DNA from: an uncultured Gammaproteobacteria bacterium
GTDB lineage: Bacteria; Pseudomonadota; Gammaproteobacteria; Arenicellales; JAANXG01
NCBI GenBank assembly: GCA_945787105.1
Contig: CALZGZ010000040.1
Location: 1 to 51,802, forward strand
Direction: 5' to 3'
DNA length: 51,802 nucleotides
Made by a program: the position numbers and the translations under genes. Below are positions 2,355-20,532 of this stretch, piece after piece. Positions within the stretch are counted from its first letter, which is position 1. Every line of letters starts with the position of its first letter. Under the pieces are notes generated by a model, which saw only the letters and a program-made list of their open reading frames with translations, was not told where the DNA came from and did no database searches.

Positions 2355-3551
2355 ATGACCGAAAAAAAACCAACCGCCGCCGCACCTTCCGCGCCCAAGA
2401 CGCCAATATGGAATAACCCGACGTTTCGCTCGGTGGCGTTTCAAGCCATCGTTTTGATGTCGGTGGCCGCGTTTTTTGTATACATTGCCAACAACACGCT
2501 GACCAATATGGCGCAGCGGGGCATTGCCACCGGTTTCGGGTTTCTGGATTTACAGGCCGGATTTGGCATCCTGATGTCATTGATCGAGTACGATGAAACC
2601 CACACCTACGGGCGCACCTTCTTCGTAGGCCTGTTCAACACCCTTCTGGTTTCATTTCTCGGTATCTTCTTCGCCACCCTGCTGGGTTTCATCATCGGTA
2701 TCGGGCGGCTGTCGCGGAACTGGCTGATTGCCCGGGTCGCAGCGGCCTATATCGAGATTTTCCGCAACATCCCATTGCTGCTGCAGATCCTGTTCTGGTA
2801 CTTCGCGGTGCTCAGCGCGCTGCCGTCGCCGCGTAACAGCCTGTCGTTGCTCGATCTATTTTTCCTAAATGTGCGCGGGTTGTACTTACCGGCACCGCAA
2901 CCGGAACCGGCCTTCACCGCCGTGAGCGTGGTCTTCGCGCTCGGCACCATTTCAAGCTTTTTCGTCGCTCGATGGGCGCACAAGAGACAGGACCTTACCG
3001 GACAACAATTTCCGGTATTGCTTACCGTCCTCGGCCTCATCATTGGCCTACCGATACTCGTGTTCGCAGTGACCGGCTTTCCGTTGACCTGGGACATGCC
3101 GAGACTTCAAGGTTTCAATTTCCGCGGTGGACTGTCGGTGATACCCGAACTCGTGGCCTTGCTGCTCGCGCTGTCGATCTACACCGCCGCGTTTATTGCC
3201 GAAATCGTGCGCGCAGGAATTCTCGCTGTCAGTCACGGACAAACTGAGGCATCTTTTGCGCTGGGACTGCGCCCCACTCTGACACTGCGGTTAGTGGTCA
3301 TTCCCCAGGCGTTTCGCGTCATCATCCCGCCGTTGACCAGCCAATATTTGAACCTCACCAAGAACTCGTCATTGGCGACCGCGGTGGGCTATCCCGATCT
3401 GGTGGCGGTATGGGCCGGCACCACGCTGAACCAGACCGGGCAGGCGGTGGAAATCATTCTCATGACGATGGCGGTGTATCTGACAATTAGCCTCGTGATT
3501 TCAATGTTCATGAACTGGTACAACAAAAAAACTGCCCTCGTGGAGCGCTGA
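2355..3551 (+). CDS. aapQ: Amino-acid ABC transporter permease
   Basis: 398-aa multi-pass membrane ORF with a HisM/GlnP-type permease core (EIFRNIPLLLQILFWYF, EIVRAGILAVSHGQTEA). Its position matches aapJQMP order. Confidence 0.88.
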   Translation: MTEKKPTAAAPSAPKTPIWNNPTFRSVAFQAIVLMSVAAFFVYIANNTLTNMAQRGIATGFGFLDLQAGFGILMSLIEYDETHTYGRTFFVGLFNTLLVSFLGIFFATLLGFIIGIGRLSRNWLIARVAAAYIEIFRNIPLLLQILFWYFAVLSALPSPRNSLSLLDLFFLNVRGLYLPAPQPEPAFTAVSVVFALGTISSFFVARWAHKRQDLTGQQFPVLLTVLGLIIGLPILVFAVTGFPLTWDMPRLQGFNFRGGLSVIPELVALLLALSIYTAAFIAEIVRAGILAVSHGQTEASFALGLRPTLTLRLVVIPQAFRVIIPPLTSQYLNLTKNSSLATAVGYPDLVAVWAGTTLNQTGQAVEIILMTMAVYLTISLVISMFMNWYNKKTALVER

Positions 3552-3555
3552 TCCT

Positions 3556-4671
3556 ATGATCCAGTCGACGCCGCGCGATACGTTTAAACGGGTTCGGGAT
3601 ATGCCCCCACCGGTGTTGACCATCGGGGTGCTCGGCTGGCTGCGAACCAACCTGTTTTCATCGGCCGCGAACACGGTGTTGACACTGTTTGCGGTCTATC
3701 TGCTCTATGTTGCGATACCGCCGGTGATCAATTGGGCATTCATAGCTGCGGATTGGGTCGGTACGAGCCGCGAGGATTGCACCGGCGGCGGCGCTTGCTG
3801 GGTGTTCGTCCTCGCGCGGCTCAATCAGTTTATCTACGGCTTCTATCCCGACGCCCAGCAATGGCGCGTGAATTTGGCTTTCGGTCTATTGATCGCGCTG
3901 TTCGTGCCGCTGTTCGTAAGGAGTTTCCCCAATAAAACCTGGCTGGGTTTTTTTCTGTTGTTCGGTTATCCGATCATCGCGTTCGTATTGTTCTACGGCG
4001 GCGTACTGGGCTTGCCCTTAATTTCTACTGACCAGTGGGGCGGATTAATGCTGACGCTGATCATCTCTGCGGTGGGGATGGTCGCGTCTTTGCCGCTCGG
4101 TGTTTTATTGGCGCTGGGTCGCCGTTCGGAGATGCCCATCGTCCGTGCTTTCAGTGTGGCCTTCATCGAACTTTGGCGAGGCGTACCGCTGATCACTGTG
4201 TTGTTCATGTCGTCGGTTATGCTGCCGCTGTTCTTACCCGAAGGCGTAACCTTCGATAAGTTGCTGCGTGCGCTGATCGGAATCACTTTGTTCGAGTCTG
4301 CGTATATGGCGGAGGTTGTCCGCGGTGGGCTGCAGGCGATCCCGACCGGACAATATGAGGCGGCCAAAGCGCTGGGCCTCAACTTCTGGAAAAGTATGTT
4401 GCTGATTATCCTGCCCCAGGCACTGAAGCTGGTGATTCCGGGAATCGTGAATACTTTAATTGCGCTGTTTAAAGACACGACGTTGGTTATTATCATTGGG
4501 CTTTTCGATATTCTTGGGGCAGTAGAATCCGCCATCAAAGATCCCAGTTGGCTGGGATATGCCGTCGAGGGTTATGTGTTCGCGGCGTTCATATTCTGGA
4601 TTTTCTGCTACGGTATGTCGCGCTACAGTCAGGGGCTGGAACGTAAGTTGAGCACCGGCCACAATCGCTGA
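3556..4671 (+). CDS. aapM: Amino-acid ABC transporter permease
   Basis: 371-aa membrane ORF starting 4 nt after the aapQ stop. It carries the EAA-loop-like motif AEVVRGGLQAIPTGQYEAAKALGL. Confidence 0.88.
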   Translation: MIQSTPRDTFKRVRDMPPPVLTIGVLGWLRTNLFSSAANTVLTLFAVYLLYVAIPPVINWAFIAADWVGTSREDCTGGGACWVFVLARLNQFIYGFYPDAQQWRVNLAFGLLIALFVPLFVRSFPNKTWLGFFLLFGYPIIAFVLFYGGVLGLPLISTDQWGGLMLTLIISAVGMVASLPLGVLLALGRRSEMPIVRAFSVAFIELWRGVPLITVLFMSSVMLPLFLPEGVTFDKLLRALIGITLFESAYMAEVVRGGLQAIPTGQYEAAKALGLNFWKSMLLIILPQALKLVIPGIVNTLIALFKDTTLVIIIGLFDILGAVESAIKDPSWLGYAVEGYVFAAFIFWIFCYGMSRYSQGLERKLSTGHNR

Positions 4672-4947
4672 CATGGTCGTATATAACACCAAGGCGCCCC
4701 GCCCCTGTTTGTTGGATATACACCGGGGGGACCCGCAGTGTCTTTTCTAGGAAATAACGACATCGATGCGCCGGATTGCTCGGCAAAGCCAGGGGCGGGA
4801 CTATCCCGGCGCTGGCTCGGTCTCGAACGCCTGTACTTGCGCTTCACTCAACCCATAGCTACGGCTATGCATTTCGCTCCAACGCGGCGTCCAACCGCCC
4901 GATCCCTTCGCCATCATCCGGGATCCTTGGTGCAATACACGACCTGG
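4672..4947 (+). mobile_element. MITE-like repeat, full-length copy A (276 bp) in the aapM-aapP spacer
   Basis: Imperfect TIRs are catggtcgtatataacaccaag (4672-4693) and cttggtgcaatacacgacctgg (4926-4947), 17/22 complementary. The 88-nt core 4802-4889 is 83/88 identical to copy B and 70/88 to copy C. Confidence 0.85.
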
Positions 4948-10393: not shown

Positions 10394-11506
10394 TTGTCAC
10401 GTGCCTCCTTTATCAATATCGCACCCGTTGTGAGCACAGTCTTCGCCAATGATCGCATCCTGGTGGTCGGCCCGTCTTGGGTCGGCGACATGGTGATGGC
10501 GCAAAGCCTGTTCAAGACGTTGAAACAACAATGTCCCCAAGCGACCATCGATGTATTGGCGCCGTCTTGGTCGGCGCCGTTGCTGGAACGCATGACCGAG
10601 ATCAACGAGGTTGTGGTCGCACCGTTCCAACACCGTCGGGCTGACATACGGAAACGCTTGCAATTGGGACGGCGGTTGCGCCGCTCAAGCTATCAGTGGG
10701 CGATTCTGTTACCGAATTCCTGGAAATCCGCATTAGTGCCATTCTGGGCGCGGATTCCGCGCCGTACCGGCTATGTCGGCGAGCATCGCTGGGGATTAAT
10801 CAATGATATCCGGCGGCTGGACCGTGATCGCCTACCCATGACCATGCAACGATTCGTGGCCCTGGCTGGATCCGCCGACCAACCGCCTCCGCCCCGGGCG
10901 TCGATGCCGGTCCCCGAGTTGCTGGTCGACCCCGGCCAGGTGAGGACGGCATTGACGGCCACGCAGTTGCCGGCACCGGATCAGCCAATCCTAGTGTTGT
11001 GTCCGGGGGCAGAATTTGGTCCCGCCAAGCAATGGCCCGCGGAGCACTATGCTCAAGTTGCGCGTCGATATTTGTCTCAAGGCTGGGGGGTTTGGTTGAT
11101 GGGATCGCAGCATGACGCGCAAGCGGCGGCGCGCATTGCGGCGTTGTGCGCAGCCGAGTGTGTCAATCTCGCCGGAAGAACCAGCTTGGCACAAGCGATC
11201 GATTTGATGTCGCTCGCCAGTTTGGTGATTTCCAACGACTCAGGCTTGATGCATGTTGCCGCTGCCCTTGGCCGTCCCTTAGTCGCCGTGTACGGGTCGT
11301 CCGATCCAGCGGTGACGCCACCGTTGACGCCGAATAGCACCGTGGTCACATTGAATCTGAGTTGTAGCCCGTGCTTCAAGCGCCACTGCCCGCTGGGGCA
11401 TCTGAAATGTTTGCGCGACTTGACGCCCGACCGGGTCGCGACCGCTGCCGATCAGCTCATCACTGACGCATTTCAGGCCGCCACCACCCAGCCCATGGGC
11501 CCATGA
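10394..11506 (+). CDS. waaF: ADP-heptose:LPS heptosyltransferase II
   Basis: The GT9 N-terminus ILVVGPSWVGDMVMAQSLFKTLK matches WaaF. The start is uncertain (TTG 10394 or GTG 10430). The stop overlaps the waaC start (ATGA). Confidence 0.88.
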   Translation: MSRASFINIAPVVSTVFANDRILVVGPSWVGDMVMAQSLFKTLKQQCPQATIDVLAPSWSAPLLERMTEINEVVVAPFQHRRADIRKRLQLGRRLRRSSYQWAILLPNSWKSALVPFWARIPRRTGYVGEHRWGLINDIRRLDRDRLPMTMQRFVALAGSADQPPPPRASMPVPELLVDPGQVRTALTATQLPAPDQPILVLCPGAEFGPAKQWPAEHYAQVARRYLSQGWGVWLMGSQHDAQAAARIAALCAAECVNLAGRTSLAQAIDLMSLASLVISNDSGLMHVAAALGRPLVAVYGSSDPAVTPPLTPNSTVVTLNLSCSPCFKRHCPLGHLKCLRDLTPDRVATAADQLITDAFQAATTQPMGP

Positions 11507-12531
11507 AGGTTCTCCTCATCAAGACCAGCTCCCTTGGCGACGTGCTGCACACACTGCCTGCGTTGACGGATGCGTTTAATACGCGGCCGGACATTCGTTT
11601 TGACTGGGTGGTTGAAGAGTCATTGATGGACATACCCGGATGGCACCCGGCTGTGGATCGGACTATCGTGTTTGCCAACCGGCGCTGGCGCCGCGAACCG
11701 TGGGCGATTTTTGGGGGTGGCCGCCGGTTGTGGCGCGAGCTGCGCCGAACACACTACGACTTAGTGATTGATGCCCAAGGATTGATCAAGAGCGCGATGT
11801 TGTCAGTCATCGCCCGCGGAAGTCGTTACGGACTGGCGCGGGACAGCGCTCGTGAACCTCTCGCTGCCTGGGTGTATCATCATGGAATCAAAGTCAATCG
11901 TCATCAGCACGCCATCGATCGACTCCGGCAGCTGTTCGCTGCTGCTTTGCGGTATCCACCACCAGAATCCGATGTCGATTATGGCATTAGCCATGACCGC
12001 TTGGGACCGGCTTCGTATCCCGAGAGTGGGAACTACGTGTTGTTTCTGCATGGTACCACCTGGCCAAGCAAACATTGGCCGGAACCCTACTGGCGCGAGC
12101 TGATTCGCCTCGCCAATGATGACGATCTCATGGTTCTATTACCCTCTGGAAACGCTATGGAGAAGGCACGCGCCGAGCGGCTGGCCGCCGACAACGCTCT
12201 CGCACGGGCGTTGCCGGTGCTGGATCTGTCCGAACTCGCCAGTCTGCTCGCAGTTGCCGCCGGCGTCGTCGCCGTCGACACGGGCCTTGGCCACCTGGCC
12301 GCTGCGGTCGCCGCTCCTTGCGTGTCGATCTACGGTGCCACCGACCCGCGGCTTACCGGAACCCGGGCCTCCGAACAACATCATCTGGTCGCCGAATTTC
12401 CGTGCGCCCCGTGTTTACGCCGCCGCTGTAGCTATTCCGGGGAAGCGGCGGTCACGCCGGCATGTTACACCACCGTGCCACCTGCTAAGGTGTGGGGTAC
12501 ACTTCAGACGAGCCTTAAAAAACGCAAATAG
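11503..12531 (+). CDS. waaC: ADP-heptose:LPS heptosyltransferase I
   Basis: MKVLLIKTSSLGDVLHTLPALTDA is the canonical WaaC N-terminus. It overlaps waaF by 4 bp. Confidence 0.92.
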   Translation: MKVLLIKTSSLGDVLHTLPALTDAFNTRPDIRFDWVVEESLMDIPGWHPAVDRTIVFANRRWRREPWAIFGGGRRLWRELRRTHYDLVIDAQGLIKSAMLSVIARGSRYGLARDSAREPLAAWVYHHGIKVNRHQHAIDRLRQLFAAALRYPPPESDVDYGISHDRLGPASYPESGNYVLFLHGTTWPSKHWPEPYWRELIRLANDDDLMVLLPSGNAMEKARAERLAADNALARALPVLDLSELASLLAVAAGVVAVDTGLGHLAAAVAAPCVSIYGATDPRLTGTRASEQHHLVAEFPCAPCLRRRCSYSGEAAVTPACYTTVPPAKVWGTLQTSLKKRK

Positions 12532-12535
12532 ATCT

Positions 12536-13582
12536 ATGCAGCACACTGTATTGGTCACCGGGGGAGCCGGTTACATCGGGTCCCACACGACGCGCCAATT
12601 GCTCCATACCGGCTATCGGGTCCTGGTGGTCGATAATCTATATTCCGGCAACAAATGGGCGATTCCGGAACAGGCGGTCTTCGTAGAACTCGATGCCGGC
12701 AATCGGGAGGCGGTGGGTCGCCTCATACACGAGCACGATGTCACCGCGGTAATCCATTTCGCCGGACATATCGTGGTACCGGAGTCGGTGAGCGATCCGG
12801 CTAAGTATTACGCCAACAATGTAGCGAACTCCTTGCACCTGATCGAGGCATGCCGCGATAGCGGCGTACGGCATTTTATCTTTTCATCCAGTGCTGCCGT
12901 GTATGGCACACCTGCGAGCATACCCGTCGATGAAGAGGCCGACACCGTACCGATCAATCCATATGGTTTCTCAAAACTGGCTACCGAGTGGATGCTGCAA
13001 GATCTTACCAACAGCGACCGCATCAACAATAAGCCGGCCAGTCAATGCTTCAATCACGTGGCGTTACGCTATTTCAATGTTGCTGGCGCAGCATTGGATG
13101 GTTCACTCGGTCAGGCGACACCAGATGCCACGCATCTGATCAAGGTGGCCTGTGAGGCCGCTTGTGGCAAGCGCGACCAAATCGCCATTTTCGGCACCGA
13201 TTATGACACCGAGGACGGGACGTGCATACGCGATTACATTCACGTAGAAGACCTCGCTCGCGCCCATGTGATGGCACTTCGCTATCTGCTTAGTGGCGGT
13301 GAATCTCAAACATTGAACTGCGGCTACGGACATGGATTCAGTGTGCGCGAGGTATTGGGTATGGTACAAAAGGTGAGCAAGAAACGATTCGCTGTAGTAG
13401 AGGCGAAGCGTCGACCCGGTGATCCGCCGGCACTCGTCGCAGAGAAGACGAAGATACATGAGGTCCTGGGCTGGATTCCCGAGTATGACGATCTCAAAAT
13501 GATATGCGAGAGCGCATACAAGTGGGAGCACAAGCTGGAGCAGTTGCACCGAAAACCTGGGATGGAAACCAAAGCGGGTTAA
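12536..13582 (+). CDS. galE: UDP-glucose (or UDP-GlcNAc) 4-epimerase
   Basis: Rossmann motif VTGGAGYIGSHT and SDR catalytic YGFSK (YxxxK). ATG 12536 gives 348 aa. The ORF-track extension to 12116 overlaps waaC out of frame. Confidence 0.88.
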   Translation: MQHTVLVTGGAGYIGSHTTRQLLHTGYRVLVVDNLYSGNKWAIPEQAVFVELDAGNREAVGRLIHEHDVTAVIHFAGHIVVPESVSDPAKYYANNVANSLHLIEACRDSGVRHFIFSSSAAVYGTPASIPVDEEADTVPINPYGFSKLATEWMLQDLTNSDRINNKPASQCFNHVALRYFNVAGAALDGSLGQATPDATHLIKVACEAACGKRDQIAIFGTDYDTEDGTCIRDYIHVEDLARAHVMALRYLLSGGESQTLNCGYGHGFSVREVLGMVQKVSKKRFAVVEAKRRPGDPPALVAEKTKIHEVLGWIPEYDDLKMICESAYKWEHKLEQLHRKPGMETKAG

Positions 13583-13586
13583 CGCC

Positions 13587-15626
13587 ATGCGTTTTGCTTT
13601 TTGTGCGTACAAAATTTTTCCCTACGGCGGGCTTTCACGGGATATGCTGCGGGTCATAGATGAATGCCAACGTCGGGGACACGAGCTAGTCGTCTACTGT
13701 AGTGAATGGCAGGGTCCGCTTCTGAACGAAGTGGAGGTTCGGATTCTCCGCTGTCACGGCTTAACAAATCACACACGGGCGGCAGCATTTCACCGTCGGT
13801 TGCAAAAGCATCTCGCGGGCGAACAGTTCGACGCCATAATCGGATTCAACAAGATGCCCGGTTTAGACATTTACTACGCCGCGGATTACTGCTACGTCGG
13901 CCGGGCAATATCGCGACATCGCGTAATGTATCTTCTAACCTCACGTTATCGGTACTACGGTAAGTTCGAACGTGCGGTGTTCGGCGTGGACAGCAATACC
14001 AAGATCCTGTGTCTTTCAGAGCGCGAAAAATCCATTTATCAACAGTTCTACCAAACCCCCGATAACCGCCTGAGTATGCTGCCCGCAAATTTGGATAAAC
14101 AGAGACTCACCGAAGGCTGTGCGCGAACGGTAAGTAGAGTCCGTAGTACGCAAGGCGTGCCAGATGGTTCGTGTATGCTGTTATTTGTCGGTTCCGGTTT
14201 TAAAACCAAGGGGCTGGATCGCACCATTCGCGCGTTGGCGGCGTTGCCAGAAGAGATGTTGGTGAAAGCATTCTTAATGGTGGTTGGACAGGACAACGCC
14301 AAACCGTTCCGACGGCTAGCTCGGCGACTCGGGATATTGGACAGGGTGCATTTCCTGGGCGGCCGCTCCGATGTCCCGGAACTGCTCCACGCCAGTGATC
14401 TGCTCATTCATCCAGCTTACAACGAAAACTCCGGGATGATCTTGCTGGAAGCAATCACCGCCGGACTGCCGGTGTTGACCACTGACGCATGCGGTTATGC
14501 GTCGCACATCGAGTGCGCCCGGGCCGGTCGGGTTTTGCGGTCACCCTTTGTTCAGGAGGCCCTGAACCGCGAGCTGGCGAGGATGTTAGTCAGCGATGAG
14601 CGTGAGAACTGGCGACGGAATGGACTTGCGTATCGAGCCAATCCGAATCTTTACGGCATGCCTACCTACGCAGTAGACAAGATAGAACAATGGGCGCGGG
14701 AGAAAAACGTCGCACCCCGACCCCAGCCAACAAGGCGCCCCCGTGGGCCGACTTTGTTGTGGCTCCGGCAGGATTTTCAAGAGGCGTTAGAGCCACATTG
14801 CACGTTTGACGATGTAATGACGATTTCCGGTGACGTATATCGCGAGGCACCAGGGCGAAGAACCTTACGCTTCACAAGAAACGGAAAAGCGTACTTCCTA
14901 AAAGCCCATAGCGGCGTCGGGTGGCGCGAGATCTCGAAAAACTTGCTTTACCTCCGGACGCCGGTAATCGGGGCACGAAACGAGTGGCACGGGATTCACT
15001 TACTGCGCCGACTTGGTATCGATACCCTGTGCGTCGTCGCCTACGGCCTCTCGGGTCGAAATCCCGCCCGGCGGCGCTCATTCATCGTCACCGAGGAAGT
15101 CCCTGCAACCATCACTGTGGAGGAATATTGTGGCCAGTGGAACACAAGTCCGCCTACAACACACGCACGTATCCGCTTCAAAAGATGGCTGATTGAAAAA
15201 ACAGCGGAGATCGCGCGAACCCTACACCGTAACGGTGCCAATCACCGTGATTTCTACCTATGCCATTTCCTGTTGAAAATCGACGGTCCCTTAGATAACC
15301 CGGTACCAGAAAAAACCGCCATCTACGTAATCGATTTGCATCGTATGCAGCTGCGACGGCGCACACCGACGCGTTGGTTGGTCAAGGATATTGCCAGTTT
15401 GTATTACTCTGGCATGAACATTGGTTTGACACAGAGAGACTTGTTTAGATTCATGAAAGTCTACGACGATAGATCATTGCGCGAAATATTCGCCAATAGA
15501 TACCAGTTCTGGCGTCGCGTGGCGAATCGGGCTTTACACTTACACAACAGTGAGAGACGCAAGATGCGAATACCAGACTCTTCTGTTGAGAGACAAACTG
15601 CGGTATCCACGACAATCCCTCACTGA
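13587..15626 (+). CDS. waaG/waaP: Fusion protein: LPS core alpha-1,3-glucosyltransferase WaaG (aa 1-370) + LPS heptose kinase WaaP (aa ~390-660)
   Basis: The N-half matches WaaG (YKIFPYGGLSRD, GFNKMPGLDIYYAAD, GSGFKTKGLDR, LIHPAYNENSG). The C-half matches WaaP (VYREAPGRRTLRF, GWREISKNLL, SFIVTEE, NHRDFYLCHFLL, VIDLHR). A Pro/Arg linker REKNVAPRPQPTRRPRGPT joins them in one uninterrupted frame. Confidence 0.9.
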   Translation: MRFAFCAYKIFPYGGLSRDMLRVIDECQRRGHELVVYCSEWQGPLLNEVEVRILRCHGLTNHTRAAAFHRRLQKHLAGEQFDAIIGFNKMPGLDIYYAADYCYVGRAISRHRVMYLLTSRYRYYGKFERAVFGVDSNTKILCLSEREKSIYQQFYQTPDNRLSMLPANLDKQRLTEGCARTVSRVRSTQGVPDGSCMLLFVGSGFKTKGLDRTIRALAALPEEMLVKAFLMVVGQDNAKPFRRLARRLGILDRVHFLGGRSDVPELLHASDLLIHPAYNENSGMILLEAITAGLPVLTTDACGYASHIECARAGRVLRSPFVQEALNRELARMLVSDERENWRRNGLAYRANPNLYGMPTYAVDKIEQWAREKNVAPRPQPTRRPRGPTLLWLRQDFQEALEPHCTFDDVMTISGDVYREAPGRRTLRFTRNGKAYFLKAHSGVGWREISKNLLYLRTPVIGARNEWHGIHLLRRLGIDTLCVVAYGLSGRNPARRRSFIVTEEVPATITVEEYCGQWNTSPPTTHARIRFKRWLIEKTAEIARTLHRNGANHRDFYLCHFLLKIDGPLDNPVPEKTAIYVIDLHRMQLRRRTPTRWLVKDIASLYYSGMNIGLTQRDLFRFMKVYDDRSLREIFANRYQFWRRVANRALHLHNSERRKMRIPDSSVERQTAVSTTIPH

Positions 15627-15765: not shown

Positions 15766-16449
15766 GTGATCATAAGAAGTCGCTTCACACAGCTTACGGT
15801 CTATCACGAACAGTATGACTCGCCCTTGCTGCAGTCGATACTCATGAGCCCCGACGCCTATCTGGTCGACACGGGTTACCAGAAACTTTATAAGCATGAT
15901 CGCACAACTAGCGTCGTTCTGGTGGCAGGTGACAATCAGAAGTTCGTCATTAAACGCTATAACACAAAGGATCTATGGCATATTATACGGCGCTCCGTGC
16001 GCTCCAGCCGGGCCGCCATATGTTGGCGGCGCGCCTACCGATTTATGGACATTGGTATCACTACCGCCCCTCCAGTAGCGATGATCGAAAAAAGGTTCGG
16101 GCCGTTGCGGGGACGTTCTTATTACATCACCGAACACGTCAACGGCACCCTCTGTATCGATTATCTGAGCGACATCGCCGACGCCGATCATGTCATCGGC
16201 GGCATCAAAAGGATCTTCTCCAACATGCTGGCGCACCACGTCAGCCACGGTGACATGAAGGCCGCCAACTTACTGGTAACCAACAAGCAGGTTGTCTTAT
16301 TGGATTTAGATGCAGCTAAGGAACATAAAACAGTGTCCCGGGCCGCGCGTGCCTATCGGCGCGACAGATCACGGTTTCTGCGCAACTGGAACCCACAGTC
16401 CAGTCTACACCTACGCCTGGACAAGGAGATTCCGAACCTTGAGGATTAA
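15766..16449 (+). CDS. Lipopolysaccharide kinase (Kdo/WaaP) family protein, second paralogue
   Basis: 227 aa with a protein-kinase-like core: FVIKRY (Lys), SHGDMKAANLL (catalytic loop) and LLDLDAAK (metal-binding Asp). It has a GTG start and lies directly downstream of waaG/waaP. Confidence 0.75.
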   Translation: MIIRSRFTQLTVYHEQYDSPLLQSILMSPDAYLVDTGYQKLYKHDRTTSVVLVAGDNQKFVIKRYNTKDLWHIIRRSVRSSRAAICWRRAYRFMDIGITTAPPVAMIEKRFGPLRGRSYYITEHVNGTLCIDYLSDIADADHVIGGIKRIFSNMLAHHVSHGDMKAANLLVTNKQVVLLDLDAAKEHKTVSRAARAYRRDRSRFLRNWNPQSSLHLRLDKEIPNLED

Positions 16450-16461
16450 CGTGACGAACAT

Positions 16462-18003
16462 TCACGAAGCGCCGCTGGTAGTTTTGAACACCAGCACGCG
16501 ATCGCCTTTTCGGTTCTGAAACGTCTTAACCGGACGCAGTCCCAGTTTGCTCACCAACCGCCGCTCATGATCCGATCGTTTGCCGCTGATTTGCACCGCA
16601 AGGTAATCGTAATCTTTCCAACCACCGCCCCACACAGTTCGCATGGTCTCGGTCCAATCATATTTAGCGCCATCCCGATACGCTGGCTTTCCTGAGTAGT
16701 AAATCAACGCTCGATTATTACTGTAGAGCTTTTCGTTGGTAGTGCTGTGTGCCGCAACCCAGCGGCCGGCAGCTTTAAGGTACCGCTTATCCGTGAACCG
16801 GTCCAAGCCTTTTACGCCAACGGCAAGGCAGATCACCGCCAACACGGGAAATACCCAGCGATTTACGGACGTCATGCCAGGCCGTTGCTCGCGCCAACCA
16901 CGGTAAAAATACGCAAGGCTAAACGGTACGGCAAGCAACACGGTCAACACCAACCCTAAGGTGTAGCGCCCGGTCAAAAATAGCTTAGTCAGCGTGAATA
17001 TGGTTAGGATCAATAGATTGACTAAAATCAACGCCGCCCACAGCGGGCGCAACGCCATGTTTGGAAAGGCTAAGTTGCGCCACACTGCGTGTACCCCCAA
17101 GAACGCATACACAATAACGAGCTTTCGTAAGACTTCAACAACGACAATGGTGATCAGCGTCAACATAAATACGACATAGGCGTACTTACCCGAGAATTCT
17201 CCTAGAAACTCTTGCCGCAAAGCGTGCAATTTGAACCACAACTCGGAACCGATCCGCTCCCACGCCAGGGCCACACTAGAAAGCGGATGCGACAAAACTT
17301 TGGTTTGTTCGGCACCCAACTCAGAACTCAACGTCCACAACGAGAAAACGCTGAACAACAATATTCCTAGCAAGATCAATATAACTGACGCGCTCAAACG
17401 ATAAACGGTTGAGTCTCGAAACCGATGAGCCAACATAATAGCGGGCATGAAAAGTAGAAATGCCACACCTTCAATTCGAAACAGGAACGCCGTGAGCGTG
17501 CATACCAACCACGCCAAGATTGCCTTGCTCTTGGGGTTTTGCCAGTAGCGAAATAAAAACACTAAAGACCAGATGTAGAATGCCAGATATCCAGTGTCCC
17601 GAATGACATAAGATCGGTACTTGTTCAATCCCGGCAACAGCAGTATCAGCAATGCGGCGAACACCACCACGCGGCGATCGCCCCCTAGCTCCACAACGGC
17701 GGCCATAAATCCCACCACCAATAACACATACAAGCCGGTGTTCACCGCGTGAGCGGAGATCTCGACATTAAGACCCGTCAACTTGCTGGTTGCGGCAATC
17801 AGCATCGAATAAAACGGCCAATGATGAATGGCTATGGCGTCCTGCCATTGTCCATTCAACAGCCGTTCTGCGACTCTGAAGTATTGGATGCCGTCGTTGT
17901 TAACGATCGGATCAATATAAACGCACCAAACAGAAAGCAGAACGCTGACCAAAGCGCTCCAAAATACCACTGAGAAATGTTTATGCAAGAATCGAGAAGA
18001 CAT
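16462..18003 (-). CDS. Glycosyltransferase family 39/83-like (ArnT/PMT-type) integral membrane protein
   Basis: 513 aa with about 11 hydrophobic spans and an N-terminal region (NNDGIQYFRVAERLL...WPFYSMLIA) like ArnT/PMT_2 enzymes. It is noticeably AT-rich relative to its neighbours. Confidence 0.65.
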   Translation of the reverse strand: MSSRFLHKHFSVVFWSALVSVLLSVWCVYIDPIVNNDGIQYFRVAERLLNGQWQDAIAIHHWPFYSMLIAATSKLTGLNVEISAHAVNTGLYVLLVVGFMAAVVELGGDRRVVVFAALLILLLPGLNKYRSYVIRDTGYLAFYIWSLVFLFRYWQNPKSKAILAWLVCTLTAFLFRIEGVAFLLFMPAIMLAHRFRDSTVYRLSASVILILLGILLFSVFSLWTLSSELGAEQTKVLSHPLSSVALAWERIGSELWFKLHALRQEFLGEFSGKYAYVVFMLTLITIVVVEVLRKLVIVYAFLGVHAVWRNLAFPNMALRPLWAALILVNLLILTIFTLTKLFLTGRYTLGLVLTVLLAVPFSLAYFYRGWREQRPGMTSVNRWVFPVLAVICLAVGVKGLDRFTDKRYLKAAGRWVAAHSTTNEKLYSNNRALIYYSGKPAYRDGAKYDWTETMRTVWGGGWKDYDYLAVQISGKRSDHERRLVSKLGLRPVKTFQNRKGDRVLVFKTTSGAS

Positions 18004-18100: not shown

Positions 18101-18865
18101 ATGGATGGTAAATCCCACCGAACTAGGCCACCGACACCAGGCGCATTTGTTGCGTCGCTGTCCTGGCTGGAGGTCGAGAAGCGGGTTGCCAATGGCGCGG
18201 CCGGCGTGTTACCGGTCGGAGCAAGTGCCAAGGAACATGGCTATCACCTCCCCATGAATACTGATCAAATACAGGCAGAGTGGCTTGCGCAAAGACTGAC
18301 CGAAAAGTTCGACATCCTTGTGTGGCCCACCGTCGGCTATGGATATTATCCGGCATTCACCGAATACCCCGGAAGTTGTTCAATCTCGGAGCGCACGTTT
18401 ACCGCAGTGGTGCGAGAGATCTTATCTGAGCTATTCCGTCATCGAGTGCAGACGGTAATCATCCTAAACACCGGCGTTAGCACCAAAACAGCGTTGCTGC
18501 AGGTGAGTGAGGAATTGGCCGGCACGCATTTGATTAACGTATATGAGGGGCCGTCCGTTGTCCAACTAGCACAGACGCTATTGCGGCAATCACATGGCGG
18601 TCATGCCGATGAGCGAGAGACCTCCATGATGCTCGCCATCGACGCCGATGTGGTGCGCATGAACAAATCCGTCGTGTGGGATAGACCCATGGGAGCAGGT
18701 CCGCTGCGCCGGCACGACGATCATGCACCCAATTATTCCCCGGCCGGCGTCATCGGCGACCCAACATTGGCGAGTCGGGAAAAAGGCCGTATGCTGCTGG
18801 CAGCGATGATAAACGACATATCCACGCGTCTTCACCAGATTATTGCCTCAAGGGCGGTACCCTGA
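18101..18865 (+). CDS. Creatininase-family amidohydrolase
   Basis: 254 aa with LPVGASAKEHGYHLP and GHADERETS, which are metal-ligand motifs of the creatininase family. Confidence 0.8.
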   Translation: MDGKSHRTRPPTPGAFVASLSWLEVEKRVANGAAGVLPVGASAKEHGYHLPMNTDQIQAEWLAQRLTEKFDILVWPTVGYGYYPAFTEYPGSCSISERTFTAVVREILSELFRHRVQTVIILNTGVSTKTALLQVSEELAGTHLINVYEGPSVVQLAQTLLRQSHGGHADERETSMMLAIDADVVRMNKSVVWDRPMGAGPLRRHDDHAPNYSPAGVIGDPTLASREKGRMLLAAMINDISTRLHQIIASRAVP

Positions 18866-18867
18866 AC

Positions 18868-20532
18868 ATGAGATTTACAACACGGGCTATTGCCACCGAG
18901 AGGCTCGAAGCCCCGTCGGTCGTGCAAATCGCCGGCCGCATATGGCGAAAGGATGCAAGCTTGTGGTCGACTCACGCTGACGTGCAGCGACGCATACTCA
19001 ATCGCCTGGGGTGGCTCGATGCGGTGAATTGGACACCACCAAGTATCGAGCGGTTGAACCTATTTGCCAACCAGGTACGCGAGGATGGATTCACCAATGC
19101 GGTACTGCTAGGCATGGGGGGATCCAGTCTCGCCCCTGAGGTGCTGAGCAGGACCTTCGGTTCAGCACCAGGTTATCTACAGCTCGAAGTCTTGGATACT
19201 ACGGCTCCCGATGCGATCCATGCGGTTGAAAATAAGGTGTCATTACCGAGTACGCTGTTTATTGTATCCAGCAAGTCGGGCACCACCACCGAAACCATGT
19301 CTTTGTTCGAGTATTTTTATCATCGGCTGGAAGCCGAAAAGCCCACACCGGGAGAGCACTTTATCGCCATTACCGATGCGGGAACATCGTTGCAGCAGTT
19401 GGCCGAGCAACGGCATTTCCGCGACTGCTTCCTGGCCCCGGCAGACGTCGGCGGGCGGTATTCGGCGCTCACTTATTTCGGCATGCTGCCTGCTGCGTTG
19501 CTTGGCATCGATCTCGAGGCCCTGGTGAGCACCGCGGTTAATGCCGCCGATAGCACCAAGCCCACTGCCGATCCCGCTGAGAACATCGCCATTCACTTAG
19601 GAGCCACGCTCGCGGACCTGGCGCGCGACGGCCGGGACAAGCTTACCTTGTTGCTGTCACCCTGCCTCGCGCCACTGGGCGCCTGGATCGAGCAGTTGAT
19701 TGCGGAAAGCACGGGCAAAGAAGGCCAAGGTCTCGTCCCGGTGAACAATCCGATACCGGGATCCAACCACGCTGACCAGGCTTTTGTCTCCATAACCACC
19801 GCCGCAGAACAGGACCGCGAGATAGCGCGCGAGTTGGACCGTTTAGGCGAACTCGGTCATCCGGTTATTCATTGGTCAATCAATGACGTGACGGAACTCG
19901 GGGGAGAGTTCTTTCGCTGGGAATTTGCCACTGCCGTGGTGGCTTACAAACTGGGTATTAATCCCTTCGACGAACCCGATGTCGCCGATGCCAAAATGGC
20001 GACTAACAGTTCCCTCGAGACCCTCAATAGCGGAACCCTGGCAACTGATGCGTCGACCTTGTACCACGACGACGTGTGCGAATGGTTCGGCGACAAACGA
20101 TATCAGGACACTTCAGGAGATCCAATCGGCCCGCTAAAAAAACTCGCAGCTGAGGTGCGTCCGGGGGATTTTCTGGCGATTCTTGCCTATCTACCGCCGT
20201 CGCCAGGAGTCGACTCCAGGCTGTACGTGATTCGTCGGCTGCTACAAGAGCGATTCGGCATCGTAACTTGTCTTGCTTACGGTCCGCGTTACCTGCATTC
20301 CAGCGGCCAACTCCATAAGGGAGGACCTAACTCTGGAGTCTACCTGCAATTCACCAGCGAGACCGAACATGACCTGCCGATCCCTGGCCAGGGTTATTCT
20401 TTTCAGCAGTTGATCACGGCGCAGGCCGCTGGCGATTTCAATGTGCTAACCCGACGCAGACGACGAATATTACGCGCGCACCTGCGAGGATCCGTAGTCG
20501 CCGCCCTGGAGGCCCTGAGCGATGTTCTGTAA
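18868..20532 (+). CDS. pgi: Glucose-6-phosphate isomerase (SIS-type, like the PGI half of Tal-Pgi enzymes)
   Basis: LGMGGSSLAPEV, VSSKSGTTTET and DVGGRYSALT are PGI/SIS motifs. It starts 2 nt after the creatininase stop. Confidence 0.8.
   Translation: MRFTTRAIATERLEAPSVVQIAGRIWRKDASLWSTHADVQRRILNRLGWLDAVNWTPPSIERLNLFANQVREDGFTNAVLLGMGGSSLAPEVLSRTFGSAPGYLQLEVLDTTAPDAIHAVENKVSLPSTLFIVSSKSGTTTETMSLFEYFYHRLEAEKPTPGEHFIAITDAGTSLQQLAEQRHFRDCFLAPADVGGRYSALTYFGMLPAALLGIDLEALVSTAVNAADSTKPTADPAENIAIHLGATLADLARDGRDKLTLLLSPCLAPLGAWIEQLIAESTGKEGQGLVPVNNPIPGSNHADQAFVSITTAAEQDREIARELDRLGELGHPVIHWSINDVTELGGEFFRWEFATAVVAYKLGINPFDEPDVADAKMATNSSLETLNSGTLATDASTLYHDDVCEWFGDKRYQDTSGDPIGPLKKLAAEVRPGDFLAILAYLPPSPGVDSRLYVIRRLLQERFGIVTCLAYGPRYLHSSGQLHKGGPNSGVYLQFTSETEHDLPIPGQGYSFQQLITAQAAGDFNVLTRRRRRILRAHLRGSVVAALEALSDVL

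Follow-up and report, generated by a model that had tools for sequence, protein, structure and literature searches.

In the 51,802-nucleotide stretch of DNA from an uncultured gammaproteobacterium that was analysed here (the window), a single open reading frame appears to carry both the WaaG glycosyltransferase and the WaaP heptose kinase of lipopolysaccharide (LPS) core assembly, and the locus raises the question of whether this is a genuine two-enzyme polypeptide and, if so, what it does, how common it is and whether the joining of the two modules matters. We propose, with a probability of about 0.8, that the gene encodes a predicted bifunctional inner-core LPS enzyme and is the fourth in a waaF-waaC-galE-waaG::waaP-kinase run.

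Architecture of the fused gene

The gene and its parts are as follows.

13587..15626, + strand: fused waaG-waaP gene, 679 aa, with an ATG start and no internal stop in the ORF listing
13587..14696, + strand: WaaG-type GT4 (GT-B) glycosyltransferase module, residues 1-370, assigned from PDB matches, fold and the EX7E motif
14697..14750, + strand: connector, residues 371-388, REKNVAPRPQPTRRPRGP, 18 aa between the modules
14751..15572, + strand: WaaP-type heptose(I) kinase module, residues 389-662, assigned from NF011703, 6DFL and fold
15573..15626, + strand: C-terminal tail (residues 663-679) with predicted disorder, and stop codon

The ORF starts 4 nt past the galE stop codon and is uninterrupted from 13587 to 15626, which confirms an earlier note on this DNA in its reading of one in-frame 679-aa ORF with WaaG followed by WaaP. 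Pfam places Glyco_transf_4 at residues 13-166, Glycos_transf_1 at 189-346 (E 9e-31) and Kdo/WaaP (PF06293) at 410-626 (E 1e-43) of the product. The note had equated residues 1-370 with a full WaaG and residues ~390-660 with a full WaaP, and the searches agree on both. In the PDB sequence search, residues 3-366 match WaaG end to end, both from Pseudomonas aeruginosa (8B5S, chain positions 4-369, E 7e-100) and from Escherichia coli (2IV7, chain positions 3-368, E 4e-96), and P. aeruginosa WaaP (6DFL) aligns with residues 393-638 (E 1e-66). Residues 391-660 score 338.3 bits against a cutoff of 170 with NF011703, the RfaP equivalog of NCBIfam, and cover model positions 3-265 of 268. By sequence comparison, then, the WaaG and WaaP matches of the fused protein are far beyond chance and both halves are matched end to end. 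In the AF2 model, residues 668-679 of the C-terminal tail have pLDDT below 50.

The closest known relative of the first module is P. aeruginosa WaaG (PA5010; 8B5Q/8B5S/8B62), with 45% identity over residues 3-366, a TM-score of 0.95 and an rmsd of 1.7-1.8 A, but that enzyme is a stand-alone protein of 373 aa, whereas in the window the WaaG module is joined to WaaP and galE is inserted upstream. E. coli WaaG (RfaG; 2IV7/2IW1), which has the same place in the pathway, is 43% identical with a TM-score of 0.94. For the second module the closest is P. aeruginosa WaaP (PA5009; 6DFL, acyl-ACP-bound), which is 40% identical, has a TM-score of 0.89 and shares the catalytic set. It is a stand-alone protein of 268 aa with a free N-terminus, in contrast to the window's kinase, which continues from the last WaaG helix and has one 4-residue and one 3-residue insertion relative to it.

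The junction between the two modules

The single ORF could in principle be an assembly or sequencing artefact in which an indel of 1-2 nt near the waaG stop merges two separate genes. The window is a 51.8-kb metagenome-type contig, and in split relatives the two genes lie only ~7 nt apart, so that one indel could fuse them. Public reads aligned at 80% likeness gave short contigs from relatives over the region, and the five public sequencing runs that share 5-9% of the sampled words represent relatives only, none of them reaching across 14624-14704; support for the junction therefore comes from independent assemblies and not from reads of the source sample. These assemblies stand against the artefact. 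All 120 best matches, drawn from NCBI, JGI, ENA and Logan assemblies, share the fused frame, and the fused state is found in the related loci L001-L006 and in L012 and L013. Six related loci compared at the junction differ by substitutions and one in-frame 3-nt indel only, with the frame kept; a homolog from a different contig of 99.8 kb (P0001) has a connector identical to that of the window; and two closed metagenome chromosomes (4.7 and 5.2 Mb) have the fusion within the same gene order. A locus that is truly ridden with frameshifts (L014) looks quite different, as its WaaG is broken too. The artefact explanation is close to refuted, and we regard it as negligible.

The earlier note had placed a Pro/Arg-rich linker at 14697-14753, which in extent essentially matches the connector at 14697-14750; its Pro/Arg-richness is lineage-specific, and only its length is conserved. 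Among 120 fused homologs, down to 51% identity, connector sequence is variable and length near-constant, which also argues against an artefact. Inspection of 14697-14760 by eye for a separate WaaP start showed neither an ATG nor a GTG in frame, nor any start codon properly spaced behind a Shine-Dalgarno-like motif; two in-frame TTG codons lie at 14754-14759 without such a motif.

Gene neighborhood

The locus is otherwise ordinary, a conserved core-LPS operon of an uncultured gammaproteobacterium, and P. aeruginosa has the same neighborhood, in the order waaF-waaC-waaG-waaP-kinases. The genes around the fusion are the following.

10394..11506, + strand: waaF-like heptosyltransferase (GT9), first of the core cluster, Pfam Glyco_transf_9 E 5e-70
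11503..12531, + strand: waaC-like heptosyltransferase (GT9), overlapping waaF by 4 nt, Glyco_transf_9 E 3e-61
12536..13582, + strand: galE, UDP-hexose 4-epimerase, 348 aa, TIGR01179 GalE equivalog with 445 bits against a cutoff of 262
15766..16449, + strand: second, shorter Kdo/WaaP-family kinase, 227 aa, Pfam Kdo E 4e-8
16462..18003, - strand: 513-aa polytopic membrane protein with a sub-threshold PMT_2 match (E 0.005, 17 bits against a cutoff of 26)

The waaF-like position is likewise occupied in L012 and L013, and galE is directly upstream of the fusion in these two loci and in L001-L005. The best PDB matches of the galE product are UDP-glucose 4-epimerases; a 488-aa galE ORF starting at 12116 was discarded as a spurious upstream extension that overlaps waaC. 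The product of 15766..16449 scores 21.6 bits with the WaaY model (Pfam cutoff 20.3), its NCBIfam matches (RfaY and others) all fall far below their cutoffs, and it is probably a further core kinase; a Kdo-family gene also follows the fusion locus in L012, L013, L014 and L015. The membrane protein has no NCBIfam match and is possibly an ArnT/PMT-like GT-C transferase, with a link to the LPS-core system that is tentative. At the same place L013 has a 502-aa protein without a Pfam match.

The transferase module and its donor sugar

In sequence and in predicted fold, the N-terminal module is a WaaG-family GT4 enzyme with a GT-B, two-Rossmann fold superimposable on WaaG; its AF2 model has pLDDT above 85 and aligns in Foldseek with 8B5S and 2IV7 at TM-scores of 0.94-0.95 and rmsd of 1.7-1.9 A. 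All 121 fused proteins have E280 and E288 of the EX7E motif, which P. aeruginosa WaaG shares, and 120 of them also have K208, the Lys that is conserved in retaining GT4 enzymes, the remaining row being gapped. This module would attach to heptose II of lipid A-Kdo2-Hep2 the first hexose of the outer core, a transfer that would take place at the cytoplasmic face of the inner membrane, and its predicted attachment at O3 of heptose II fits the neighbors, with waaF and waaC upstream and kinases downstream.

The earlier note had called this half a glucosyltransferase, a name that now appears doubtful. P. aeruginosa WaaG has a UDP-GalNAc-type donor pocket, while in E. coli F97, R208, A282, A283 and I285 specify UDP-glucose (PMC10579960). 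The window protein lacks these E. coli residues and has Y97, T207, N281, S282 and M284 at the corresponding positions (Y/T/N/S/M, against Y/T/N/T/T in P. aeruginosa and F/R/A/A/I in E. coli); it thus shares Y97, T208 and N282 of the P. aeruginosa pocket, with S in place of T283 and M where P. aeruginosa has T at position 285. Pocket position 208 is T, not R, in 120 of 121 fused proteins. The transferase half is therefore probably not of the glucose-specific WaaG subtype, and the JGI name 'glucosyltransferase' is probably wrong for the fused family. Because of the donor pocket and the galE gene directly upstream, the sugar is most likely a galacto-configured one, such as GalNAc or Gal, and not glucose. 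The family is not uniform at positions 282-285 (N/T, T/A/S and T/G/M), so a firm name for the sugar would be premature. P. aeruginosa WaaG fails to complement E. coli waaG (PMC10579960), a sign that WaaG-type function is not fully understood.

The kinase module and acyl-ACP

In the AF2 model the C-terminal module folds like a eukaryotic kinase and includes the C-terminal subdomains specific to WaaP, and it superimposes on chain A of 6DFL with a TM-score of 0.89 and an rmsd of 2.4 A over 264 alignment columns. The earlier note had pointed to the Lys of YFLKAH and to the motifs NHRDFYLCH and VIDLHR, and all are present, as K439, H553-R554-D555 and D583. P. aeruginosa WaaP residues K51, E78, H161, D163 and D188 have been shown to be essential (PMC6147952), and the whole WaaP catalytic set (K51, E78, H161-R-D163, D188-x-H190, D206) has its counterparts in the window protein; all 121 fused proteins have K439, E466, H553-R554-D555, D583-L-H585 and D601 unchanged. 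The C-terminal module would use ATP to phosphorylate heptose I on the same lipid A-Kdo2-Hep2 acceptor, with O4 as the predicted site.

These residues also bear on whether one module might be a catalytically dead scaffold, leaving the protein with a single activity. Pseudo-enzyme domains do occur in fusions, and nothing specific to this family points that way; on the other side, all checked catalytic residues are invariant in the 121 fused proteins apart from the gapped K208, synonymous-only change is abundant in both modules, and both pass strict family and fold matches. We consider a dead module highly improbable and retain the prediction of two activities.

P. aeruginosa WaaP on its own is insoluble unless acyl-ACP is present (PMC6147952), and a covalent partner could plausibly help, which raises the idea that WaaG, as an attached module, takes the place of acyl-ACP as the stabilizer that keeps an otherwise insoluble kinase folded. 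The basic ACP-docking patch is, however, retained. Of the seven basic residues that contact ACP, the window protein has six (K532, R533, R617, R621, K624 and R632; R221 is replaced by Q). Across the fused family K532, R533 and R621 do not vary, and conservation of R617 and R632 is at least 90%; in P. aeruginosa numbering K140/R141 correspond to K532/R533 and R226 to R621, and the positions of R222 and R237 reach the same minimum of 90%. Of the hydrophobic tunnel, L143 and L219 are kept and V147 is T in the window protein. Continued binding of acyl-ACP would predict such a pattern, so that replacement of acyl-ACP by the WaaG module is very unlikely and the kinase module is probably still acyl-ACP-dependent. 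WaaG and WaaP are under study as targets for antibiotic adjuvants, and P. aeruginosa requires WaaP for viability (PMC6147952, PMC10579960). Since free WaaP is hard to keep soluble, the fusion may offer a ready-made construct for structural work on how the two enzymes bind their shared lipid-anchored acceptor.

Distribution and evolution of the fusion

The earlier note had taken the architecture to be unusual, which it is not. In a search of 5.8 billion clusters all 120 best matches are full-length fusions with PF00534 and PF06293, among the top 149 clusters at 50% identity at least 42 have the two modules together, and the fusion is retained down to ~30-35% per-domain identity. The window protein is an ordinary, uncharacterized member of a widespread fusion family that comprises well over a hundred sequence clusters of environmental Gammaproteobacteria, the taxonomic spread of the carriers being taken from record titles and NCBI taxonomy. 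As for the claim that the fusion was undescribed, a literature search found no paper that describes a WaaG-WaaP fusion and none that reports a biochemical study of any member of the fused family, but the proteins are common and already named, after one half. The NCBI and JGI names cover a single half, either 'RfaP' or 'UDP-glucose:(heptosyl)LPS alpha-1,3-glucosyltransferase'. Proteins of ~680 aa are thereby named after one activity, probably with the wrong donor sugar, so that pathway reconstructions for Gammaproteobacteria from marine and sediment settings conceal the other.

In more distant relatives (L007-L011) the waaG stop is followed after 7 nt by a waaP GTG start in another frame, and stand-alone WaaPs of 276-277 aa are abundant. 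As the parts are separate, adjacent genes in L007-L011 and one ORF in the window, WaaG and WaaP are a true Rosetta-stone pair, as the earlier note had suggested, and so widespread a natural fusion is genomic evidence for a functional link between the two steps.

On the WaaP tree the fused proteins of the family that spans 51-93% identity form one clade (FastTree SH-like support 99; SH-aLRT 99 under the IQ-TREE C20 mixture). Seven stand-alone WaaP calls are nested in it, five of which were examined, and all five are secondary or artefactual. P0150 was rejected as a fission product as its locus, L014, is frameshifted; P0142 is not a simple fission, the L015 lineage having deleted galE and the GT module and kept WaaP; P0164 was also rejected as a fission product, L016 being rearranged beside IS genes on a contig of 3x coverage; and P0130, called as a stand-alone WaaP, starts at a non-start residue inside the fused-aligned region and is probably truncated. 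In P0145 and P0148 the first residue is a Met that falls within the kinase module when aligned with the fused proteins. Judged from these sequences, loss of the transferase module within the window's fused clade is secondary and rare. A single origin for all fused proteins was rejected, as the addition of 42 deep representatives gave nine changes between the fused and split states, a count unreliable in its exact number given long branches and a biased stand-alone sample; a single origin thus holds only for the window's own family. The fusion may have arisen by loss of the boundary between abutting waaG and waaP genes, the state seen in the split relatives, in an event that would have occurred once, in the ancestor of the Arenicellales-type family, and would have been kept by selection.

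Possible coupling of the two modules

Fusion of two steps of one envelope-sugar pathway in one polypeptide is known from HldE, a fused heptose kinase/adenylyltransferase whose halves are separate genes in other bacteria. HldE is well studied and acts on soluble sugar nucleotides; the WaaG-WaaP protein differs in that its predicted acceptor is lipid-anchored and in being uncharacterized. A plausible benefit of the fusion would be a fixed 1:1 stoichiometry, with the kinase co-localized with the membrane-associated transferase on one lipid-anchored substrate.

How closely the two modules cooperate is a matter on which the evidence points both ways. The fusion may be a neutral one, with the modules as beads on a string that lack a defined interface and channeling and gain nothing beyond the co-expression that an operon gives anyway. 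The connector evolves fast, since in the six-assembly comparison its codon changes are mostly at the amino-acid level and both modules have many synonymous-only changes, and the block-mean pLDDT of the AF2 model drops to 66-78 over residues 371-390. Most Gammaproteobacteria use two separate genes, deep diversity shows several switches between the fused and the split state, and L015 dropped the GT module yet retained WaaP. Against neutrality stand the almost constant length of the connector among the 120 homologs, the persistence of the fusion to ~30-35% per-domain identity and the AF2 model of the whole chain (679 residues, pLDDT 90.9), in which a pTM of 0.87 favors a fixed mutual orientation. 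On these grounds we think a neutral fusion somewhat unlikely.

At the other extreme the protein might be a rigid bifunctional machine that carries out both steps without release of the acceptor, with acyl-ACP docked and UDP-GalNAc or UDP-Gal supplied by GalE. The single indication of rigid packing is the pTM, which would be consistent with it, and we treat this stronger version of the proposal as speculative and rather unlikely. PMC10579960 gives Pseudomonas as the sole known source of the GalNAc-(1->3)-Hep core motif, and a rigid machine fed by GalE would, if real, extend it to Arenicellales and other marine and sediment Gammaproteobacteria.

The earlier note had also held that WaaP acts only after WaaG, which is more than the literature consulted supports. 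A waaG mutation reportedly interferes with core phosphorylation, as the title of a study by Yethon et al. from 2000 is said to state, and that title goes no further. One paper draws the WaaG and WaaP steps in the reverse order (PMC4483631).

The WaaG-WaaP Fusion and Its Junction

The fused gene is a single open reading frame of 679 codons with an ATG start and zero internal stops, and its parts are as follows.

13587-15626, + strand: waaG-waaP fusion
Residues 13-166: Glyco_transf_4 (Pfam)
Residues 189-346: Glycos_transf_1 (Pfam)
14697-14750, + strand: connector, residues 371-388, REKNVAPRPQPTRRPRGP
Residues 410-626: Kdo/WaaP domain PF06293 (Pfam)

The NCBI curated RfaP equivalog NF011703 scores 338 bits (cutoff 170) over residues 391-660, corresponding to model positions 3-265 of 268. 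In a sequence search of solved structures, residues 3-366 match WaaG of P. aeruginosa (8B5S; E 7e-100) and of E. coli (2IV7; E 4e-96), both in the absence of large gaps, and residues 393-638 match P. aeruginosa WaaP (PaWaaP; 6DFL; E 1e-66). The coordinates, motifs and domain limits proposed in the earlier note are therefore correct.

An assembly indel could in principle have joined two truly separate genes into one ORF, which we regard as very improbable on the evidence of independent assemblies, rather than of reads from the source sample. All 120 of the best matches in a 5.8-billion-cluster protein collection, drawn from NCBI, JGI, ENA and Logan, are 631-732 residues long, cover 94-100% of the query and contain both PF00534 and PF06293, and the identical single-ORF state is present at six related genome loci (53-86% identity). 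When five of these loci are aligned with the window by codon, the junction differs by substitutions and one in-frame 3-nt indel and by nothing else, and the connector is identical in a 93%-identical protein from another contig of 99.8 kb. The fusion also occurs with the same gene order on two closed metagenome chromosomes of 4.7 and 5.2 Mb (L012 and L013), where GlnE and a class-IV aminotransferase are followed by the heptosyltransferase gene(s) (one in L012, two in L013), the epimerase, the fusion and a Kdo-family kinase. Five public runs sharing words with the fusion region yielded relatives only, with 0 contigs spanning 14624-14704. The WaaG-WaaP fusion is real, and its continuity in one frame is confirmed by the ORF, the Pfam and NF011703 domains and the same frame in independent assemblies. 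The closest relative in the genome collection (L005:6001-8094, 86% identity) is 697 residues long, the 18 extra residues lying outside the junction.

Catalytic Residues, Predicted Fold and Acyl-ACP Patch

Both halves retain their catalytic residues. The EX7E glutamates of the GT4 module, E280 and E288, are found in 121 of 121 aligned fused proteins and the conserved K208 in 120 of them. The PaWaaP residues needed in vivo are K51, E78, H161, D163 and D188 (PMC6147952), and their equivalents K439, E466, H553, D555 and D583 are invariant in the 121 fused proteins, as are H585 and D601. Synonymous-only codon changes are numerous in both modules of the codon alignment; changes in the connector are chiefly at the amino-acid level, with its length kept. 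The fused protein is very probably bifunctional.

An AlphaFold2 model built from a 120-sequence alignment has a mean pLDDT of 90.9, with block means of 66-78 over residues 371-390 and disorder in the last 12 residues, and its pTM of 0.87 for a chain of 370 + 290 residues suggests a defined mutual orientation of the two modules. By Foldseek the N-terminal half of the model superimposes on WaaG of P. aeruginosa and E. coli with TM-scores of 0.94-0.95 and the C-terminal half on PaWaaP with 0.89. No solved chain spans both modules, since the best query-normalised TM-score was only 0.52.

PaWaaP requires acyl-ACP for solubility and contacts it through K140, R141, R221, R222, R226, R229 and R237 (PMC6147952). 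The window protein has a basic residue at six of these seven positions, with K532, R533 and R621 invariant and R617 and R632 at least 90% conserved across the fused family. Binding of acyl-ACP is thus probably retained in the fused kinase, which speaks against a reading in which the attached WaaG module takes over the role of ACP.

Donor Sugar and Proposed Reaction

The specificity of WaaG for UDP-GalNAc or UDP-glucose is switched by five pocket residues, which are Y97, T208, N282, T283 and T285 in the UDP-GalNAc pocket of P. aeruginosa and F, R, A, A and I in the UDP-glucose pocket of E. coli (PMC10579960). With Y, T, N, S and M, the window protein is the same as the P. aeruginosa enzyme at 97, 208 and 282 and has S for T283 and M for T285, whereas it differs from the E. 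coli enzyme at all five positions. Among the 121 fused proteins T208 is present in 120 and Y97 in 115, and positions 282-285 are variable. The gene 4 nt upstream of the fusion is galE (TIGR01179, 445 bits; cutoff 262), and its position directly upstream is conserved.

12536, + strand: galE start (ATG), 4 nt past the waaC stop, supported by homology

A mechanical ORF list places this start 140 codons upstream, at ATG 12116 and overlapping waaC; homology supports 12536. Together, the pocket residues and the adjoining conserved galE make a galacto-configured donor, not UDP-glucose, most likely for the transferase.

We propose that the product would be a membrane-associated enzyme with two activities and lipid A-Kdo2-Hep2 as its acceptor, in which the GT4 module would glycosylate heptose II and the kinase module would phosphorylate heptose I, with core phosphorylation probably continued by a second, shorter Kdo-family kinase. 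The fusion would secure 1:1 stoichiometry and co-localisation. A waaG mutation reportedly interferes with core phosphorylation, going by the title of work by Yethon et al. from 2000. WaaP is drawn ahead of WaaG in PMC4483631, and the order of the two steps is not settled in the literature consulted.

Distribution and Origin

Across 1.84 billion representatives at 50% identity, exhaustive scanning with HMMER gave 972 proteins at E ≤ 1e-30, and at least 42 of the top 149 contain both complete halves, with per-domain identities down to about 30-35%. Carriers with a name are MAGs labelled 'Gammaproteobacteria bacterium', 'Arenicella sp.', 'Arenicellales bacterium' and 'Candidatus Poriferihabitaceae' (order Arenicellales), and a few bins have other names. 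Database names follow one half, either 'lipopolysaccharide core heptose(I) kinase RfaP' or 'UDP-glucose:(heptosyl)LPS alpha-1,3-glucosyltransferase'. The earlier note had implied that the architecture is unusual; given these fused clusters and half-names, and the uniformly fused best matches, that claim essentially falls. The fusion is a common architecture, visible in databases, and the window locus is therefore one more member. A full-text literature search found no description of a WaaG-WaaP fusion. What interest remains comes from the absence of experimental work, the systematic naming after one half, a donor that is likely not glucose and a two-module arrangement predicted to be rigid.

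In the more remote relatives L007-L011 (39-42% identity), from marine gammaproteobacterial MAGs, waaG and waaP are distinct genes. The waaG stop of L007, TGA, lies 7 nt ahead of the waaP start GTG, which is in a different frame, and the fusion could have arisen by loss of such a boundary. A WaaP-module tree gathers the fused proteins of the 51-93% identity family, 121 in all, into a single clade (FastTree SH-like 99; SH-aLRT 99 in an IQ-TREE C20-mixture tree of a reduced set). The stand-alone WaaP calls nested within it that were examined are secondary or artefactual. The L014 locus (2776-4798 of a 187-kb ENA contig) is frameshift-ridden, its fusion homolog being called in three pieces of 217, 179 and 265 residues with WaaG fragmented too, which is not a true fission; either the long-read assembly is error-prone or the gene is a pseudogene, and gene callers can thus yield false 'stand-alone' WaaPs. 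At L015:713-4065 neither galE nor the transferase module is left, and the lineage retains waaF, a short waaC, a waaP with a new N-terminus overlapping waaC, and a kinase; here the sugar-transfer step was lost by secondary deletion. The L016 locus is rearranged beside IS genes, the P0130 protein, whose first residue is not a start and falls within the aligned region, is probably truncated, and the initial Met of P0145 and P0148 aligns inside the kinase module of fused proteins. When 42 deeply divergent fused representatives were added, fused and split states interleaved with 9 changes needed and many long branches, against a single origin of all fused proteins. Taken together, the trees support one fusion origin for the family of the window protein and point to several fusions or fissions across the whole diversity.

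Neighboring Genes and Related Architectures

Downstream of the fusion are the following genes.

15766-16449, + strand: compact second Kdo/WaaP-family kinase, 227 aa, after a 139-nt gap
16462-18003, - strand: multi-pass membrane protein, 513 aa, convergent with the kinase genes
18101-20532, + strand: creatininase-family amidohydrolase, 254 aa, then a 554-aa protein with a partial phosphoglucose-isomerase domain

The second kinase matches Pfam WaaY just over the cutoff, with every NCBIfam equivalog far under its own cutoff, and a Kdo-family gene likewise follows the fusion in L012 and L013 and the WaaP gene in L014 and L015. The membrane protein has a sub-threshold match to PMT_2 (GT-C, ArnT-like; E 0.005) and no NCBIfam match, a 502-aa protein without a Pfam match occupies the same place in L013, and it may be a periplasmic transferase modifying core or lipid A. 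ORFs similar in size and termini to the last pair occupy the same relative position in L001, L002 and L005, three related loci with the fusion.

In the split-gene relatives (L007:4765-7149, likewise L008-L011) the WaaG-like module lies within a stop-to-stop ORF of about 794 residues with two GT4 modules, whose Glycos_transf_1 stretches cover roughly 222-347 and 596-751. The ORF may represent a tandem GT4-WaaG fusion, or else a pair of genes in one frame without an intervening stop. The representatives P0259, P0264 and P0333 (762-773 aa) match this make-up, and P0280, P0283 and P0295 (745-787 aa) also have two Glycos_transf_1 stretches. Larger relatives of the fusion include P0254 (1126 aa), which combines WaaG and three Kdo-family kinase stretches in a single protein, and P0262 (879 aa), in which an additional GT4 N-domain-like segment separates WaaG from WaaP.
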